Positions 491-57,266 of a DNA stretch of 64,000 nt are shown one piece after another. Within the stretch, counting starts at the first letter, position 1, and each line of letters begins with the position of its first letter. The stretch lies in contig OZ024760.1 in the NCBI GenBank assembly GCA_964016885.1, forward strand, positions 19,220,001-19,284,000, written 5' to 3'. A model generated the notes under the pieces. The model was not told where the DNA came from and searched no databases. It saw only the letters and a program-made list of their open reading frames with translations. The translations under genes were made by a program, and so were the position numbers. Origin of the DNA: Eledone cirrhosa. Taxonomy: Eukaryota.

Positions 491-629
491 AACCCTATGT
501 TTATACCCTCCGTATACCGTGTCTTTTATATCGGGAATCTAATTTATTCGGTCCTCAATGTTGCCATTGACTGACCAACGGTCAAAAATAATACAGATAC
601 AATATAGACACAAACACATATATATAGTT

Positions 630-673
630 TATCAAAGTTCTTTCGTTGCACATCTGCAACATCGTCAGTGGTG
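630..673 (-). ncRNA. Type I hammerhead ribozyme motif in the 3' pseudo-LTR (sense to the ORF)
   Basis: CUGACGA-u-GUUGCA/gaug/UGCAAC-GAAA-GAACUU; minimal stem III; stem I weak (cacca/ugaua). Confidence 0.7.
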
Positions 674-903
674 CTATTGTTTCCTCCCGTTACATTGTAT
701 TTTCTACGCCATCTTTATTTAGTCTGTTTATATATTTATTTATTTGTTTATTTTATTTTGTCTTTGCGTTTGCGTGTGTGTATAGTGTTTTGTTTGATGT
801 GTGTTCGTGATTGGGTGACTGTGTATTGGTTAATGTATTCTATCTTTACTAGTGTGTTTATATGTGTTTGTTATTGTGCTTGTGTATGTATTTATTTATT
901 TAT

Positions 904-2133
904 TTATACTTCTCTTAGGTCAGTGTTGTTTGTTTGGGTGTTGTTGTTATTCCATTCATTCTTTCTGTTTAGCCTTGGCCTTCTAAGTTCTATTTCACTG
1001 GCCTCTCTGATTTTCCTATCTGCTGGGTCATTTCTATGTTTAGATATTATTCTAATTTCTATGTTGTCTATGTTACCGTCATGTTGTTGTCTAGCATGTT
1101 CGTATAGTACTGACCCGTTTTTTTTTCGTCCTTTTAGTTCCCCCCAGTGTTGGTCTATCCTTTCACCTATGCTACGAGCTGTCTCGCCTATGTATGTTGT
1201 CATGTTTCTGCAAGTACCCTCTGTACATCTTATGCTATAGACTACGTTTCTAGTTTTACAGTTTATCCGGGGGTTTACCTTACATATGATACATTTCCTA
1301 TTAGTACAGTGGGTTTTCTTAAAAGGGTAGGTTTTGCTGATCAGGGATTTTATGGTAGTTCCTGGCTTTTCTACCACCTTAATCTTTAAGTGGGTCTTTC
1401 TCTGGGCCGTTCTACACTGGTTAGCTAATTTCCCTCCAGGGGTAGCGTCCACAAACATGACACTCTGGTATCTCTGGTTGTCGTACCATGAGCTGGCTTT
1501 CCCTATCTTTTGTCTAGCCCTATCTAAGCTATTCCATGATTTGCTCCTGTATAATTGGCAAATTCCTTTCATGTCCAGTTCTATGAGGGTCTTATACTTC
1601 TCCATGGTTCCTTCGTATACCCTGACTCTGTCTCTTTGGTTGTAGCCAGAGAACTGCATGCAGTTGATGAAGTGTTGGATGTGTCTTTCCATTTTTGTTG
1701 GGTCGCACATGCGGGACACATTCTTCATCACTCGTACCAAATCTGCGATCAGAATATTAAACTTAGCACTACTGGACATTGCTGAGTTTTTGAGTATCAG
1801 GTATTTGGAGGCCATGGGTTTGGCATAGTGTGAGTGGAGAATTTGGGCTCTCTCGTCTATAGTGTTAATCCAGAGTTCTGTGTCTAATACAGGTAGTCTA
1901 TTGTTAGGGTGTTTGGAAGGGTAGTCGATAGTTACAGTTATACTCTGGTGTATGGAATTAGCTATCTGCTGGATGCGTTCCATTGTGCTACGTTCTAAAT
2001 CAAACTTGTTAGTGCTCTCGAGTGGGGGTGTTCTTATAACTATATTGATATCGTCTACATAACGAGAGTACATGATGAGGTCTATGGAGCTCTCACGAAG
2101 GAGATCTTTAAGTCTCCTTTCCCACCATACCAT
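904..2133 (-). CDS. Penelope-like polyprotein, C-terminal part: RT palm/thumb, Cys-rich linker, GIY-YIG endonuclease
   Basis: YSRYVDD, LPVLD, KPMAS and FSGY motifs; CTNRKCIIC...C linker; VVYSIRC...TYIGET..R...H GIY-YIG with E and N residues downstream; the frame stays open upstream through KIYTQNEGAAIGVSIAGDVANLFM (~2134-2230), so the annotated Met is internal. Confidence 0.9.
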   Translation of the reverse strand: MVWWERRLKDLLRESSIDLIMYSRYVDDINIVIRTPPLESTNKFDLERSTMERIQQIANSIHQSITVTIDYPSKHPNNRLPVLDTELWINTIDERAQILHSHYAKPMASKYLILKNSAMSSSAKFNILIADLVRVMKNVSRMCDPTKMERHIQHFINCMQFSGYNQRDRVRVYEGTMEKYKTLIELDMKGICQLYRSKSWNSLDRARQKIGKASSWYDNQRYQSVMFVDATPGGKLANQCRTAQRKTHLKIKVVEKPGTTIKSLISKTYPFKKTHCTNRKCIICKVNPRINCKTRNVVYSIRCTEGTCRNMTTYIGETARSIGERIDQHWGELKGRKKNGSVLYEHARQQHDGNIDNIEIRIISKHRNDPADRKIREASEIELRRPRLNRKNEWNNNNTQTNNTDLREV

Positions 2134-2346
2134 AAAAAGGTTGGCAACGTCACCAGCTATGCTGACGCCAATGGCTGCACCCTCATTTTGGGTGTAGATC
2201 TTCTCGTTGAACTTGAATATGTGGCCCTTTAGGGTAGTTTGATACTACCCCCTATTGCATGTGCGACCATTTTTCTTACCTGATCATTGTTTTGGGGGGT
2301 CCGTATAGCTTTGGTCCACCCAATCCACCTTTCCATGGGAGTCTTT

Positions 2347-4464
2347 TTAGCCATTGAGGTTATGGTGGGGGGGGGGGGGGGGTCTACCTCTTATGGGTCT
2401 ACTAGGGCAGAAACGTCTAAGGTCATGGCTGTCTGGGTAGTCAGTGTCGTAGGTAAGTCTAAGTAGGAGGCCCAGTTCGTCTGTGTCGAGGTCGCAGAAC
2501 TCCACCTCACTCTCAATGATCATCTCCACACATCTTTTCACAGCAAAATCAATGTTAATGGATGGGTACAGTGATACCACATCCATGCTGCCTATTATGC
2601 AGTTAGATAGGTTCCTGTTTTTGTTGCACTCACTGATTATCCTGAGGAGGTCCTCTGTACTGTCACATACATCTGGGGACATCTTGATTATGGGGCGTAT
2701 AACCATTGAGAGAAAGTAGGAGATCCTGTAGTTGCTAGCTATATTTGCTCCGCATACGGGTCTTGTTGGTGGTCCTCTTGTCGAGTCGTCGACTGTCTTG
2801 TGGTCTTTGCGGAGCCCATACAAGGGGGATATGCCATTGTTAGACGCCTGGAAGTTGTTGGCAGTGCGTCTGCTTGGCTTTAGGATGTCGGTCCACATCA
2901 TCATGTGAGCGTTGAGGATTTTCTCTCTCCCATCATGTGTTTGCTGTGCAATTTCGCTCGTGTTGGTGATGTGGGGTTGCATAGCCTTGGTGTAGTTCGG
3001 CATGCTATCTATTGACATCCTACCGGACTTATCCGTGGGTAGACATACTACCTCACCATCCCTTGTGCGCTGCTTGAGACTAACCAAGCCTTCTACAGGT
3101 TTCCTCCCAAGTTGTTGGGCCTCTGGTCTGCTCTGTCTCTTAGTATACCGGTCTACTATTTGTCTAATCTTATTTCTAGCTATGGTGAACTGTGCCTCTG
3201 TCTCGTCATCTATTTGTTGTGGTATGCAAACTCTTTTATTAAAGGGTAACCTCGTAGGATAGATATTACCCATCTTATATGTTTTGTCAGCTGGGTTGAA
3301 AAATAGTTTCTCTAAGGGGTTGTCATTATATCTATCGTCATAGTTGTGTGTGTTGCTATTATTGTTATTATGGTGGTTGTTGTTGTTCCTATCATTAGCA
3401 TTATTATTATTGTTATGATTGCTAGATGTATTGTTGCTGTGATTGTTAGATGTATTGTTGTTATGATTGCTAGGTGTATTGTTGCTGTGATTGTTAGATG
3501 TATTGCTGTTATGATTGCTAGATGTATTGTTGCTGTGATTGTTAGATGTATTGTTGTTATGATTGCTAGATGTAGTGTTGCTGTGATTGTTAGATGTATT
3601 GTTGTTATGATTGCTAGATGTATTGTTGCTCTGATTGTTGTTTACTTCACCGTTATTGTTGTTGTTACTGTTATTTCTACCATTGTGGTTGTTACTTTTA
3701 TTATGTTTCTTGTTTTTGTTGTGTCTATCATTAATGTTCCTACATGTATTATTTCCATTATTACCACTGTGGTTGTTGTTGTTGTTGTTCGTATTGTTAC
3801 CGTTATTACTACTGTGGTCGCTGCTGCTGTGTCTGTAGTTAATGTTTCTATTATTACTATTATTGTGGTTGTTGTTCTGTCTATCGCTAGTATTATTACC
3901 ATTATTACTATTTCTCACTCTCCTGCTATTGTTATTGTTATGGCTGTTATTTCTATACTCAGTTATTGTTTATATTACTACTACCGTTATTATTATTATT
4001 GTTGTTATTGTTGTTTACTTTTGCATTCCAACGTATTTTTGTGAAACACTTTTCCAGCTCTGTTTTGCACTCAATAGGGTTAATCTTTTTGTAGATGGCA
4101 AATTTTGGTGGTAGCTGCAGGATTTGTTGTTCTTGTTCACTGATTAAAGTGTTCCCATAAATATTTACTGTGTGGTCATTGGTAAATTCTTCCGGTAGTC
4201 TTACATCAGTCATACGGATATTGTTGATGTTATCTGGGTATTTTTGAGAATATTCTACTTTCTTTCTTGTAGTTTTTTTTTGTTCATCCATTCTAATTTC
4301 TTATTGAAATGCCTATTGCATTCATTTCGGGTGTATTTCGTTTCACGTCGGATGACGCTCAAGTCATCCCTTTCGTTTGGTGTGGTGAGATTTTGGACTT
4401 CCTTACCGTTAATGCGTTTCTGTCTGTAAAGTTCGTTGACTTTTGTGTATGTTGTTCTTTTCAT
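2347..4464 (-). pseudogene. Frameshifted N-terminal and RT-finger part of the same polyprotein, with an Asn-rich repeat insertion
   Basis: Fragments 4255-4464, 3959-4291 (LQLPPKFA) and 2347-3918 (PTDKSGR, PLYGLRKDHK, PTRPVCGA, SMDVVSLYPSI); frame breaks near 4270, 3960, 2370 and 2240. Confidence 0.85.
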
Positions 4465-4773
4465 ATTAACTGTTATTGTGTGTTTTAGTCGTTCAGCCTA
4501 AGAGAAGTATAAATAAATAAATAGATAAATAAATAAATAAAGACATACACAAGCACAATAACAACAAACACATATAAACACACACTAGTAAAGATAGAAT
4601 ACATTAACCAATACACAGTCACCCAATCACGAACACACATCAAACAAAACACTATACACACACGCAAACGCATGCGCAAAGAAGACAAAATAAAATAAAT
4701 AAAATAAACAAATATATAAACAGACTAAATAAAGTTGGCGTAGAAAATACAATGTAACGGGAGGAAACAATAG

Positions 4774-4817
4774 CACCACTGACGATGTTGCAGATGTGCA
4801 ACGAAAGAACTTTGATA
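4774..4817 (+). ncRNA. Hammerhead motif in the inverted pseudo-LTR
   Basis: CTGACGA 4779-4785, 6-bp stem II, GAAA 4803-4806; reverse complement of 630-673. Confidence 0.7.
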
Positions 4818-5003
4818 AACTATATATATGTGTTTGTGTCTATATTGTTATTTTTGACCGTTGGTCAGTCAATGGCAACATTGAGGACCGATTAAATTAA
4901 ATTACCGATATAAAAGACACAGAAGCGAAAAACCAACCAAACAGTGAGTGTTCTGTTATTAATTCTGGCAATATTGCACAAATATGACCCTCCCCAAGTA
5001 TAA

Positions 5004-6453
<1,450 letters not shown>

Positions 6454-10033: not shown

Positions 10034-10216
10034 CACGTTATTCCGGGTTGAATCGGAGGTAACCACAGTAAGTAAGGTGCTCAATACATAGCAGAGTATA
10101 AAAGTTTTAATATAGATGAGATTCTACAAGACTAGAACCGTTTCATTCTTTAGAAATCATCAGGTATTCCTGATGATTTCTAAAGAATGAAACGGTTCTA
10201 GTCCTGTAGAATCTCA

Positions 10217-10226
<10 letters not shown>
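10034..10226. mobile_element. Fold-back non-autonomous insert in (TA)n with a 5'-truncated hammerhead core on both arms
   Basis: Arms 10107-10164 and 10169-10226, loop tatt; CTGATGA 10170-10176, stem II ttct/agaa, GAAA 10189-10192; same family as 32560-32735. Confidence 0.8.
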
Positions 10227-22696: not shown

Positions 22697-23029
22697 TTGT
22701 AATATAAAGTATTGTATTGTTTACCGTCCCCCAAACCCCTCCTGGGTAACATTTGAAACAAAGGATTTGGTAAAGTTAATTATAAACATGAGAAAATGTT
22801 AGATGTAAAGGAAATAGCAGATGTATAGTATAATGATGTAGATGGAAGTCTATTGTTTGTAGAATTATATTATGTTGATGTTTTTTATAGCAATGTAAAT
22901 ACCAAAGACACAATAAAGGCCAAAATGAAAGCGGAAATGAGCAGGAAATATTAGTTTTTTTTTTATTTATTCGTGTCAACTCTAAATGACAAATCTACTC
23001 GGTAATATTTTGATTAGGGGCATTATTAA

Positions 23030-23367
23030 TATATTTATATATGTATATATATATATATGTATATGTATATATGTATATATATATATATGTATATATATAT
23101 ATGTATATATGTATATGTATATGTATATATATATATGTATGTGTATATGTATATATATATATATGTATATATATATGTGTATATATATATGTATATATAT
23201 ATAAATAAATTTATATATATGTATATGTATATATAGATAAATAAATTTATATATATATATATGTATCTATATATATATCTATATGTATCTATATATATAT
23301 CTATATGTATCTATATATATATCTATATATATATATATATATATCTATATATATCTATATATATATA

Positions 23368-23408
<41 letters not shown>

Positions 23409-23419
23409 ATATATATATC

Positions 23420-23458
<39 letters not shown>

Positions 23459-23481
23459 GTATATATATATATATATATATC

Positions 23482-23518
<37 letters not shown>

Positions 23519-23539
23519 CTATATATGTATATATATATG

Positions 23540-23574
<35 letters not shown>

Positions 23575-23947
23575 GTATATATATATGTATATATATATAT
23601 GTATATATATGTATATATATATGTATATATATATGTATATATATATGTATATATATATGTATATATATATATATATATCTATATGTATATATATATATAT
23701 CTATATGTATATATATATATGTATATATATGTATATATATATATATCTATATGTATATATATATATATATGTATATATATGTATATATATATATATCTAT
23801 ATGTATATATATATGTATATATATGTATATATATATGTATATATATATGTATATATATGTATATATATATGTATATATATGTATATATATATGTATATAT
23901 ATGTATATATATATGTGTATATATGTATATATATATATATCTATATG

Positions 23948-23978
<31 letters not shown>

Positions 23979-23985
23979 CTATATG

Positions 23986-24016
<31 letters not shown>

Positions 24017-24079
24017 CTATATGTATATATGTATATATATATATATATCTATATGTATATATATATATATATCTATATG

Positions 24080-24111
<32 letters not shown>

Positions 24112-24169
24112 TCTATATGTATATATATATATGTATATCTATATGTATATATATATATGTATATATATG

Positions 24170-24201
<32 letters not shown>

Positions 24202-24273
24202 TCTATATGTATATATATATATGTATATCTATATGTATATATATATATGTATATCTATATATATATCTATATG

Positions 24274-24306
<33 letters not shown>

Positions 24307-24911
24307 GTATATATATATGTATATATATATGTATATATATATGTATATATATATGTATATATATATGTATATATATATGTATATATATATGTATATATAT
24401 ATGTATATATATATGTATGTATATATGTATGTATATATGTATGTATATATGTATGTATATATGTATGTATATATGTATGTATATATGTATGTATATATGT
24501 ATGTATATATGTATGTATATATGTATGTATATATATATGTATATATATATATGTATGTATGTATATATATATGTATATATATATGTATATATATATGTAT
24601 ATATATATGTATATATATATGTATATATATATGTATATATATATGTATATATATATGTATATATATATGTATATATATATGTATATATATATGTATATAT
24701 ATATGTATATATATATGTATATGTATATGTATATGTGTGTGTATATGTGTGTGTATATGTGTATGTATATGTGTATGTATATGTGTATGTATATGTGTAT
24801 GTATATGTGTATGTATATGTGTATGTATATGTGTATGTATATGTGTATGTATATGTGTATGTATATGTGTATGTATATATGTATGTATATATGTATGTAT
24901 ATATGTATGTA
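23030..24911. repeat. TA-derived compound microsatellite
   Basis: Direct inspection. Confidence 0.95.
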
Positions 24912-25105
24912 TGCTGATGATAGCTAACAAGCTTGAAACTAGTACATCGTTCCTGTGTCAGTGTTGAACAAAAAGGTGACGTGGTTGCCTTAACACCGTA
25001 TGGCATAAATTCAGGCTGTTCAGTTTGTTTACAAACGAACAAAGCGACGTTAGCGCCGCTAAACTGATACGTGCATATATGTATGTGTACCTGTATGCAT
25101 ATGTA

Positions 25106-25138
<33 letters not shown>

Positions 25139-25577
25139 GTGCATGCTACTGTACGTCTGTATACATATATGTATGTACGTATACATGCATACTTACATTT
25201 AAGTAAGTGCCATACTAAGAGTGAGAAATGAAATTTCGTTTTCATTTTGTTTCAATTTATCGTTTTCGGTATGCCTAACCGATTTAACTCACTCAATATG
25301 CAAATTAGGCTGCTCAGCCGTTAATTTTCATAAGGAAAGTATATACTTTCGAACGTTCAACTATCTGGCAGATGGGTAAACGGTGCTGATGATAGCTAAC
25401 AAGCTTGAAACTAGTACATCGTTCCTGTGTCAGTGTTGAACAAAAAGGTGACGTGGTTGCCTTAACACCGTATGGCATAAATTCAGGCTGTTCAGTTTGT
25501 TTACAAACGAACAAAGCGACGTTAGCGCCGCTAAACTGATACGTGCATATATGTATGTGTACCTGTATGCATATGTA

Positions 25578-25619
<42 letters not shown>

Positions 25620-26055
25620 CATGCTACTGTACGTCTGTATACATATATGTATGTACGTATACATGCATACTTACATTTAAGTAAGTGCCATACTAAGAGT
25701 GAGAAATGAAATTTCGTTTTCATTTTGTTTCAATTTATCGTTTTCGGTATGCCTAACCGATTTAACTCACTCAATATGCAAATTAGGCTGCTCAGCCGTT
25801 AATTTTCATAAGGAAAGTATATACTTTCGAACGTTCAACTATCTGGCAGATGGGTAAACGGTGCTGATGATAGCTAACAAGCTTGAAACTAGTACATCGT
25901 TCCTGTGTCAGTGTTGAACAAAAAGGTGACGTGGTTGCCTTAACACCGTATGGCATAAATTCAGGCTGTTCAGTTTGTTTACAAACGAACAAAGCGACGT
26001 TAGCGCCGCTAAACTGATACGTGCATATATGTATGTGTACCTGTATGCATATGTA

Positions 26056-26097
<42 letters not shown>

Positions 26098-26533
26098 CAT
26101 GCTACTGTACGTCTGTATACATATATGTATGTACGTATACATGCATACTTACATTTAAGTAAGTGCCATACTAAGAGTGAGAAATGAAATTTCGTTTTCA
26201 TTTTGTTTCAATTTATCGTTTTCGGTATGCCTAACCGATTTAACTCACTCAATATGCAAATTAGGCTGCTCAGCCGTTAATTTTCATAAGGAAAGTATAT
26301 ACTTTCGAACGTTCAACTATCTGGCAGATGGGTAAACGGTGCTGATGATAGCTAACAAGCTTGAAACTAGTACATCGTTCCTGTGTCAGTGTTGAACAAA
26401 AAGGTGACGTGGTTGCCTTAACACCGTATGGCATAAATTCAGGCTGTTCAGTTTGTTTACAAACGAACAAAGCGACGTTAGCGCCGCTAAACTGATACGT
26501 GCATATATGTATGTGTACCTGTATGCATATGTA

Positions 26534-26568
<35 letters not shown>

Positions 26569-27007
26569 GTGCATGCTACTGTACGTCTGTATACATATAT
26601 GTATGTACGTATACATGCATACTTACATTTAAGTAAGTGCCATACTAAGAGTGAGAAATGAAATTTCGTTTTCATTTTGTTTCAATTTATCGTTTTCGGT
26701 ATGCCTAACCGATTTAACTCACTCAATATGCAAATTAGGCTGCTCAGCCGTTAATTTTCATAAGGAAAGTATATACTTTCGAACGTTCAACTATCTGGCA
26801 GATGGGTAAACGGTGCTGATGATAGCTAACAAGCTTGAAACTAGTACATCGTTCCTGTGTCAGTGTTGAACAAAAAGGTGACGTGGTTGCCTTAACACCG
26901 TATGGCATAAATTCAGGCTGTTCAGTTTGTTTACAAACGAACAAAGCGACGTTAGCGCCGCTAAACTGATACGTGCATATATGTATGTGTACCTGTATGC
27001 ATATGTA

Positions 27008-27051
<44 letters not shown>

Positions 27052-27487
27052 CATGCTACTGTACGTCTGTATACATATATGTATGTACGTATACATGCAT
27101 ACTTACATTTAAGTAAGTGCCATACTAAGAGTGAGAAATGAAATTTCGTTTTCATTTTGTTTCAATTTATCGTTTTCGGTATGCCTAACCGATTTAACTC
27201 ACTCAATATGCAAATTAGGCTGCTCAGCCGTTAATTTTCATAAGGAAAGTATATACTTTCGAACGTTCAACTATCTGGCAGATGGGTAAACGGTGCTGAT
27301 GATAGCTAACAAGCTTGAAACTAGTACATCGTTCCTGTGTCAGTGTTGAACAAAAAGGTGACGTGGTTGCCTTAACACCGTATGGCATAAATTCAGGCTG
27401 TTCAGTTTGTTTACAAACGAACAAAGCGACGTTAGCGCCGCTAAACTGATACGTGCATATATGTATGTGTACCTGTATGCATATGTA

Positions 27488-27529
<42 letters not shown>

Positions 27530-27649
27530 CATGCTACTGTACGTCTGTATACATATATGTATGTACGTATACATGCATACTTACATTTAAGTAAGTGCCA
27601 TACTAAGAGTGAGAAATGAAATTTCGTTTTCATTTTGTTTCAATTTATC
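24912..27649 (+). mobile_element. Tandem array of a 472-480-bp hammerhead-containing unit (non-LTR retrozyme-like), about 5.7 copies
   Basis: CTGATGA cores at 24914, 25386, 25864, 26342, 26816 and 27296; units differ almost only in the internal (TA)n length; flanked by TA tracts. Confidence 0.92.
25379..25423 (+). ncRNA. Minimal type I hammerhead, representative of the six copies in the array
   Basis: Stem I aacggug/caucguu; CUGAUGA; u-AGCU-aaca-AGCU-u; GAAA; palindromic ACUAGU; GUA site. Confidence 0.88.
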
Positions 27650-48502: not shown

Positions 48503-49194
48503 GAAAACAAATAACGAAACGAAATTAAATTTCGTTTCGCTTCTAACTCACTTTTGTATGACTGACGCTTAAACAATTAAGTTAAAGTGTACATTTACAT
48601 ATGTATACGGAAGTATTAGTATGCATATAAATACACACATGTATACATATGTACATGTACTCAGCTTTTCACTAGACACTTTACATTGAGTGTCAGCTAG
48701 TCTTTATGTAACCACACAGACGGACCGGGTTTTAGAGTCATACGAGTTTTCAAGGAAACACATTTCCTCTATTCTCCAGAGGGCCAGACAGGAATATTGG
48801 ACTAGTTTCGATGTTATTACATCTCATCAGCAATATTTACCCATCTTCCGGCTTCTCTGGAGAATTGTAAAAGCACATATCTGATATGTGCTTTTACAAT
48901 TCTCCAGAGAAGCCGGAAGATGGGTAAATATTGCTGATGAGATGTAATAACATCGAAACTAGTCCAATATTCCTGTCTGGCCCTCTGGAGAATAGAGGAA
49001 ATGTGTTTCCTTGAAAACCCGTATGACTCTAAAACCCGGTCCGTCTGTGTGGTTACATACAGACTAGCTGACACTCACTGTAAAGTGTCTAGTGAAAAGC
49101 TGAGTACATGTACATATGTATACATGTGTGTATTTATATGCATACTAATACTTCCGTATACATATGTAAATGTACACTTTAACTTAATTGTTTA
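48503..49194. mobile_element. 625-bp fold-back (312-bp arms, 1-nt centre at 48882) of a hammerhead retrozyme related to the 478-bp array
   Basis: Arms 48570-48881 and 48883-49194 with few mismatches; extra tail 48503-48569. Confidence 0.92.
48927..48971 (+). ncRNA. Minimal type I hammerhead (mirror copy at 48793-48837, minus strand)
   Basis: Stem I aauauug/caauauu; CUGAUGA 48934-48940; stem II gaugu/acauc; GAAA 48955-48958; ACUAGU; GUC 48962-48964. Confidence 0.92.
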
Positions 49195-51529: not shown

Positions 51530-51572
51530 GTCACTGAAGAGGTCACAGAATGTGTGACGAAAGAACTTTGAC
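51530..51572 (+). ncRNA. Hammerhead of the pseudo-LTR type (GAAAGAACUU)
   Basis: Stem I guca/ugac; CUGAAGA 51534-51540; stem II gucaca/ugugac; GAAA 51559-51562. Confidence 0.78.
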
Positions 51573-54774: not shown

Positions 54775-54936
54775 AAGTTGATTATATCGACCCCAGTACG
54801 TTACTGGTACTTTATTTTATCGACCCCTTGAGGACAAAAGGCAAAGTTAACCTCGGCGGGATTTGAACTCAGACCGTAAAGGGCCGTAACTCTATGCCGC
54901 AAAGCATCGCCTCCGACCCTCTACTGATACTGCCAT
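54775..54936 (-). mobile_element. tRNA-derived SINE
   Basis: B-box and head in reverse orientation. Confidence 0.85.
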
Positions 54937-56815: not shown

Positions 56816-56917
56816 TCACGATGGAAGTGGTTGTCCGTAAAAGCACGAGCCCTATCGAAGTTCACTGTCATCTTGTCGAATTTATAGTTATAAAAATATA
56901 TATTATAACCATTATAT

Positions 56918-57266
56918 CGGTGAATTGGCAGTATCGGTAGAGGGTTGGACGCCATGCTTTCTAGCATAGTTACGTCCCTTTACAGTCTGAGTTCAAATCC
57001 CGCCGATGTTAACTTTGCCTTTCATCCTTACGGGGGTCGATAAAATAAAGTACCAGTAATGTACTTGGTAATTGCTGGCCTTGTGCCAAAAAGTAAAAAT
57101 AATTATTACATATATATACACATACATATATAATATGTATATGTAATAATTATTTCTACTTTTGGCACAAGGCCGGCAAATCTCCAATACATTACTGGTA
57201 CTAAAATAAAGTACCAGTAATGCACTGGGCAATTGCTGGCCTTGTGCCAATAGTAGAAACAATTAT
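56918..57266 (+). mobile_element. Full-length SINE (56918-57108) followed by an inverted pair of tail fragments
   Basis: A- and B-boxes present; tail fragments at ~57148-57202 (minus) and ~57203-57266 (plus). Confidence 0.88.

Follow-up and report, generated by a model that had tools for sequence, protein, structure and literature searches.

A tandem hammerhead array in Eledone cirrhosa, a likely PLE-type insertion from a probably circular RNA

The tandem array at 24912-27649 in a stretch of 64,000 nucleotides of the Eledone cirrhosa genome is likely to be a single recent insertion of a non-coding unit with a ribozyme motif into a (TA)n repeat. It would have been made by the enzyme of a Penelope-like element (PLE) that reverse-transcribed the RNA of the unit, probably circular, several times round. 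Below, the window is the whole 64,000-nt stretch analysed, coordinates are positions within it, and unit positions are counted from the predicted cut site of the ribozyme. The features are listed in Table 1.

The array, its predicted ribozymes and its family

TRF describes the array as 5.7 copies of a period of 478 with 99% matches, in agreement with the 5.7 head-to-tail units reported by the first-pass annotation. The hammerhead cores start at 24914, 25386, 25864, 26342, 26816 and 27296, which reproduces its spacings of 472, 478, 478, 474 and 480. The units had also been described as varying almost only in TA length, and this is correct up to one TG. With the TA run collapsed, no difference is found over 451 positions of the five full units or over 329 of the partial one, and the only unit-specific change is an additional TG inside the TA run of unit 5, which does not recur. 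Outside the central TA region the units differ nowhere from the commonest unit of the young subfamily to which the array belongs, and whose 40-nt marker has 393 exact matches. The insertion is therefore young, and the recent origin claimed for it is borne out by this match together with the absence of other differences between the units.

Table 1. Features of the array and its flanks in the window.
Feature	Position	Strand	Remarks
Degenerate (TA)n tract on the left, target of the insertion	23029..24911	.	TRF; (TA)n flanks family-wide; 1.9 kb
Single-armed insertion, 5.7 head-to-tail units	24912..27649	+	5' truncation at unit position 446; 3' end is the long, tail-bearing end at unit position 322-323
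Hammerhead 1, truncated, without proper stem I 5' strand	24912..24951	+	predicted cut after 24944
Octamer ATGCAAAT and second octamer-like box, candidate internal promoter (one example of one per unit)	25298..25334	+	also kept in the 469-bp sister family
Hammerhead 2, complete type I	25374..25426	+	stem I with outer extension, U-U at stem II base, ACUAGU palindrome as stem III; predicted cut after 25416
Long TA/TG hairpin (one example of one per unit)	25535..25666 (unit 119-250)	+	length-variable
Hammerhead 3	25852..25904	+	predicted cut after 25894
Hammerhead 4	26330..26382	+	predicted cut after 26372
Hammerhead 5	26804..26856	+	predicted cut after 26846
Hammerhead 6	27284..27336	+	predicted cut after 27326
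Tail of ~60 nt between the two fixed family 3' ends	27590..27649	+	the two ends are the predicted start sites of reverse transcription
Right degenerate (TA)n tract	27650..29972	.	TRF; 2.3 kb

The unit contains no ORF, the longest stop-free frames being 85 codons on the ribozyme strand (+) and 118 on the other strand (-), crossing the TA run. An LTR layout was not found in the insertions. The GC content of the array including its flanks is 0.26-0.30. The unit folds far below its shuffles (z -8.8), mostly due to the long TA/TG hairpin; the microRNA matches that Rfam gives on this hairpin were rejected as composition artefacts, far below their cut-offs. The octamer and the octamer-like box lie upstream of the cut by 110-120 and 80-95 nt and are kept between the 478-bp and the 469-bp families. 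We take these boxes to resemble the snRNA-type promoter of newt satellite 2.

According to the sequence, the units carry a predicted self-cutting RNA motif. It is a type I hammerhead whose stem I measures 6-7 bp and carries an outer extension. Stem II, of 4-5 bp, begins with a U-U mismatch at 10.1/11.1, which the first-pass annotation did not mention, stem III is formed by ACUAGU, and the cleavage triplet is GUA. The core is intact, and the ACUAGU duplex was computed at -4.8 kcal/mol. The palindromic stem III is as the first-pass annotation had it, and the label "minimal" had to be dropped in its published sense, given the dimensions of stems I and II. Six hammerheads had been counted. All six cores are present with the GUA triplet, but the array begins 2 nt before the first core, where about three chance pairs with the microsatellite replace stem I. 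As this first copy has lost the 5' strand of stem I, five complete type I motifs remain in consecutive units, with four monomers between complete ribozymes. With its tandem non-coding units, consecutive complete hammerheads and dispersed copies, the repeat is of the retrozyme type, as had been proposed.

In Rfam no match reached gathering level, and only a weak Hammerhead_HH9 hit was obtained (18.5 bits, E 0.086). When the window family, an older subfamily and the 469-bp sister family are compared, 5 out of 16 stem pairs are changed on both sides and 90.6% of the cells pair, in a set of six sequences from about three lineages. Exact pattern matching finds 10,333 copies of the 37-nt ribozyme motif in the 3.0 Gb genome and none of the reversed control. 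Together with the compensatory changes among the three lineages, this argues that the motif is not due to chance. We also considered the U-U mismatch as a decayed version of a G-C pair, which was ruled out for the family by 10,333 exact copies with U-U, 7 with U-C and none with G-C.

The first 100 matches group into 52 clusters, and scaling this to all 10,333 gives a family of thousands of insertions, about 5,000-5,400 by extrapolation. Unit length ranges from 466 to 540, and near-identical arrays of at least 15 units are present in the genome. In the 10-kb stretches flanking the window no copy of the stem III motif was found. An artefact of assembly, in the array itself or in the number of its copies, is extremely improbable. 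The array does lie inside 4 kb of low-complexity TA sequence, and its exact copy number is given by the assembly only. However, the TA length varies between the units, the ends of the array are the fixed ends of the family, and the family is found genome-wide and also in contigs of public runs (5037 contigs of X1, possibly the source of the assembly, and 31 of X6).

Other repeats are present in the window. At 48503-49194 the 469-bp sister family is represented by a two-armed insertion in (TA)n, with one tailed arm and one without a tail; it has the same ACUAGU stem III, but its stem II has a G-C pair at the base and its site is GUC, and the octamer and tail motifs are common to both families. 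A third hammerhead-bearing family is represented by two fold-back fragments in TA repeats (10036-10225 and 32560-32737), also with U-U at the base of stem II. The region 30586-32177 is an exact repeat of 591-bp period, with 1001 bp at 100% identity. A dispersed repeat of ~190 bp, SINE-like in size and with 85-92% identity, is located at 39711-39919, 41769-41973, 54792-54935, 56880-57108, 61095-61295 and 62822-63599.

Insertion ends, inverted arms and candidate helper elements

To describe the insertions we collected 176 arm ends at 102 loci. Among these, 82 are at unit positions 305-326 (the long end), 60 at 250-267 (the short end) and 34 elsewhere, many of the latter being alignment breaks in the TA run. 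The fixed 3' ends are found 260-263 and 317-322 nt beyond the cut site, and not at it, about 60 nt apart. The 102 loci include 45 two-armed, back-to-back insertions, and in 34 of these 45 a long end is paired with a short end. The window copy has one arm only, with the long end. Flanks of the family copies are nearly always (TA)n. This signature corresponds to the "tail" of PLEs, which makes the family a non-LTR retrozyme likely to be moved by a PLE enzyme; that the insertion is of PLE type we hold to be highly probable.

The 5' ends are scattered. Of 112 arms, counted at loci other than the 29 selected for 5' ends close to the cut site, a single one ends no more than 7 nt from it, against 1.6 expected. 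TA-joined 5' ends at the cut site were found in 2 of 29, read by eye from the 100 matches listed among 340. Linear monomers cut by the ribozyme are ruled out as the main template by this lack of an excess of 5' ends at the cut site. As cDNA synthesis passes through the cut site, the template would be either uncut or re-ligated.

Units within an array differ on average at 1.6 of 313 positions (92 pairs), and units from different loci at 8.8 (1471 pairs). In all 27 comparable cases the two arms of one insertion are closer to each other than the control. For L171, L172, L173, L175 and L181 an array-specific unit length and TG pattern is common to both arms.

The array unit has no ORF for RT plus GIY-YIG and is not an autonomous PLE by that criterion. 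A near full-length autonomous PLE lies in the window at 519-4920 on the minus strand, with an RT and, at the C terminus, GIY-YIG, frameshifted in this copy, and is flanked by inverted terminal repeats with a hammerhead-like core. Pfam did not recognise its ORF pieces. Its family is young and abundant, with 94 other scored copies at 95-97% identity and open frames often longer than 1000 aa, and no similarity was found between its ends and the array unit. Nor is the end sequence of the unit shared by any of 60 loci, 30 of them from one PLE family and 30 out of 150 GIY-YIG matches; two matches near these loci are neighbouring insertions of an older subfamily. Hammerhead-like cores of PLE type are also located at 51534 and 58818 in the window, and the motif at 51534 recurs near one GIY-YIG locus (L208).

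Strand-biased A>G changes and the template of the arrays

A-to-I editing of an RNA that is then reverse-transcribed leaves a strand-specific excess of A>G changes. Variants were typed on the RNA strand, outside the pure TA run (unit 160-203) and the poly-T tract (296-322). Among 56 rare variants found in at least two units of a locus, 22 are A>G and 4 are T>C (p=3e-4). Counted by loci, the two classes stand at 13 against 4. Without the array L174, described below, the shared variants still include 15 A>G against 4 T>C (p=0.011). The 252 single-unit variants include 19 A>G and 35 T>C. The TA/TG hairpin (unit 119-250) contains 8 of the 22 shared A>G variants (p=0.045), and the neighbour preference of the edited A is unremarkable. 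We are very confident that the template was RNA and that it was edited.

The array L174 (G000:C1:160404000-160412600) contains 11 full units of two types in strict alternation, for which the chance is 1/462 if L174 is considered alone. Outside the central part the two types carry 10 and 2 changes, all 12 of them A>G, and inside it they carry 5 and 3 additional G. The inverted arm is in phase, and both arms begin in a type-A unit. The edited motif of L174 occurs seven times in the genome; six of these copies lie in L174 itself and the seventh in a rearranged piece that has no full unit, so the assembly holds no parent array with this phase. One of the two alternating ribozymes has an A>G change in stem II (A-U to G-U) and could, speculatively, be the uncut site in a dimer. 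In L188 the period is three, marked by A69G and A221G across 18 units. The phase is broken near the 3' end, where one unit is missing, and A394G is present in just two units, six apart. The A221G motif is too common (115 matches) to trace the parent of L188.

An oligomer phase is found in these two out of 11 arrays with at least six full units, examined unit by unit; the others are uniform or irregular. The check covered arrays other than L192 and the older L031, L137, L160, L165 and L166. Six loci obtained from edited-motif matches gave no additional strict phase. Recurring variants of irregular distribution and other than A>G are seen in S069, in L187 and in a 14-unit array of the sister family, which points to duplication or conversion at the DNA level as a further process in the arrays. 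In the last of these, L132-L133 (G000:C1:14042500-14058000), the irregular recurring changes are C>A, G>A and A>C.

The simplest reading of the edit phases is a reverse transcriptase that goes round edited RNA circles one, two or three units long. At the level of the family, a circular template is likely. The window array has neither a periodic nor a private edit, so that its own circular origin is inferred from its relatives; it is the reading we favour, with somewhat less assurance. A rolling-circle origin had been put forward by the first-pass annotation. Periodic A>G changes in two sister arrays favour it for the family, but the window array lacks a diagnostic phase and its extra TG is ambiguous.

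According to this model, the arrays would be transcribed, as suggested by the A>G bias and the candidate promoter. Neighbouring ribozymes would then cut the transcript, probably as dimers via ACUAGU, pieces of one, two or three units would circularise, and the RNA would undergo ADAR-type editing. A GIY-YIG/RT protein of a PLE would nick (TA)n and begin cDNA synthesis at unit position ~322 or 262. The fixed ends are observed, and the enzyme is proposed by analogy with the one in PMC11167929; intact ORFs of PLEs are plentiful in the genome, which speaks for this model. It would pass the cut site without stopping, consistent with the lack of excess 5' ends there, and fall off at random. Both ends of the target would often be extended from the same molecule, giving the inverted arms observed in the family, with the long-end arm only in the window. 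We are evenly divided on a more specific version, in which the RT of the PLE would prime on the same circular RNA of one to three units from the two ends of a DNA break and run round it for up to 18 units, the editing acting as a natural barcode. If true, oligomeric circles that were edited are recorded in the genome, and copying from circles could account for the tandems, inverted arms and tails of PLEs generally.

Several observations speak against copying from circles. The window array is free of phase, only 2 of 11 long arrays have an oligomer phase, and that of L188 is imperfect. There are irregular variants other than A>G, and a phase could result from DNA-level duplication of a short insert that had been edited. 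No autonomous partner that shares sequence was found among the 60 PLE/GIY-YIG loci, and the covariation comes from six sequences of about three lineages. In published experiments cleavage was seen in 1 of 9 Xenopus dimers (10.64898/2026.07.22.740005), and uncut RNA was the main template of a PLE in vitro (PMC11167929). One alternative is the insertion by a PLE of a long, linear, uncut read-through transcript of an existing homogeneous array, with the periodic edits appearing afterwards, when a short edited insert is amplified at the DNA level. It would fit the absence of 5' ends at the cut site equally well, near-identical source arrays of at least 15 units exist, DNA-level reshuffling is visible, and the arms of S069 have common irregular variants offset by one unit. 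Even so, we consider it unlikely. Edits on a linear multimer would differ from unit to unit, yet the A>G bias sits in the shared variants. The unit types of L188 differ by single bases, which would be too little for a period-3 register under homology-driven crossing-over. The arms of L174 are in phase and the assembly contains no parent array, and repeated 5' truncation would be expected to shorten the arrays every generation.

Much less probable again is the insertion of one or two units by a PLE, followed by satellite-like growth in place through unequal crossover or extrachromosomal DNA circles, a route that is discussed in 10.64898/2026.07.22.740005. The homogeneity within arrays, the array-specific unit lengths and the irregular shared variants would also be expected from such growth. 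However, inverted arms are unable to exchange by simple unequal crossover, and in this family both are multimeric with a common haplotype and phase; moreover, thousands of separate and very young loci are multimeric, and their ends remain at the two fixed positions.

Comparison with known retrozymes and PLEs

By the features tested, all of them read from sequence, the array family belongs to the metazoan non-LTR retrozymes, and its insertions have the anatomy of a non-autonomous PLE. Like axolotl Rtz_353/HHR_Amex2, the family consists of non-coding, low-GC tandems with one type I hammerhead per unit, a weak helix III and thousands of copies, and like HHR_Amex2 it has a U-U mismatch where helix II begins (Cervera and de la Pena 2020, PMC7229834). 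The RNAs of these published retrozymes include monomers, dimers, trimers and circles, and the dimers cleave better (PMC7229834). Cutting by the ribozymes and closure into circles have been shown for axolotl and for other retrozymes. PMC7229834 proposes tandem cDNA made from circles by an unknown RT, without genomic evidence in the passages covered. Unlike the axolotl and mussel retrozymes, with units of 330-390, the array family has units of 466-540 with an internal TA hairpin, is targeted to (TA)n, and shows two fixed ends as well as inverted arms.

Animal retrozymes have been described as non-autonomous PLE derivatives by Li, Clavereau and Pollet 2026 (10.64898/2026.07.22.740005). Our family belongs to the same class as theirs, whose units span 51-972 bp, in most cases with no more than seven repeats, and which co-occur with PLEs (10.64898/2026.07.22.740005). 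Their link to PLEs is drawn from this co-occurrence and from pLTR homology in Xenopus, whereas here it comes from the anatomy of the insertions and the phase of the edits; a homologous pLTR was looked for and not found. Local satellite-like amplification is also suggested by Li et al. (10.64898/2026.07.22.740005).

For the PLE Poseidon PAc of Anolis, reverse transcription starts in vitro at two internal sites whose spacing equals the tail, with uncut RNA as the main template (Frangieh et al. 2024, PMC11167929). PLEs are known for partial tandems, an inverted truncated arm, a tail at one end and microsatellite targets, in a cycle that is called undefined (Craig et al. 2021, PMC8557442). The array family resembles EN+ PLEs in its AT-rich or (TA)n targets, its 5' truncation, its partial tandems, its inverted 5'-truncated arm, its tail and a hammerhead upstream of the predicted RT start sites (PMC11167929, PMC8557442). 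It differs from them in a unit without ORF, a tail of ~60 nt instead of 30-40, and many full tandem units. The nearest structural precedent is found in non-autonomous Chlamys elements such as MRC1, which form multicopy head-to-tail insertions.

The minimal hammerheads of PLEs have, like the array motif, palindromic positions 15.2-16.2 and loop 3 and a predicted dimeric fold (Cervera and de la Pena 2014, PMC4209133). They also have a helix II of 7-8 bp, a short helix I, an extra nucleotide and a conserved G10.1-C11.1 (PMC4209133), whereas the array motif has canonical helix sizes and U-U. Its helix II is 4-5 bp, the extra nucleotide is absent, and C11.1 occurs as a variant seven times, never with G10.1.

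The retrozyme class, the dimer-type stem III, the U-U mismatch, the link to PLEs and, as a proposal, rolling-circle cDNA are already in print. In the literature searched, with most subscription journals outside the search, we found no paper with such genomic evidence from edit phases in the parts available. The family also shows likely RNA edits written into inherited DNA. Its two fixed start points, in-phase arms and periodic edits give countable marks for the pasting of retrozymes and for the formation of tandem and inverted PLEs, and its unit is a small template suited to an in vitro test.
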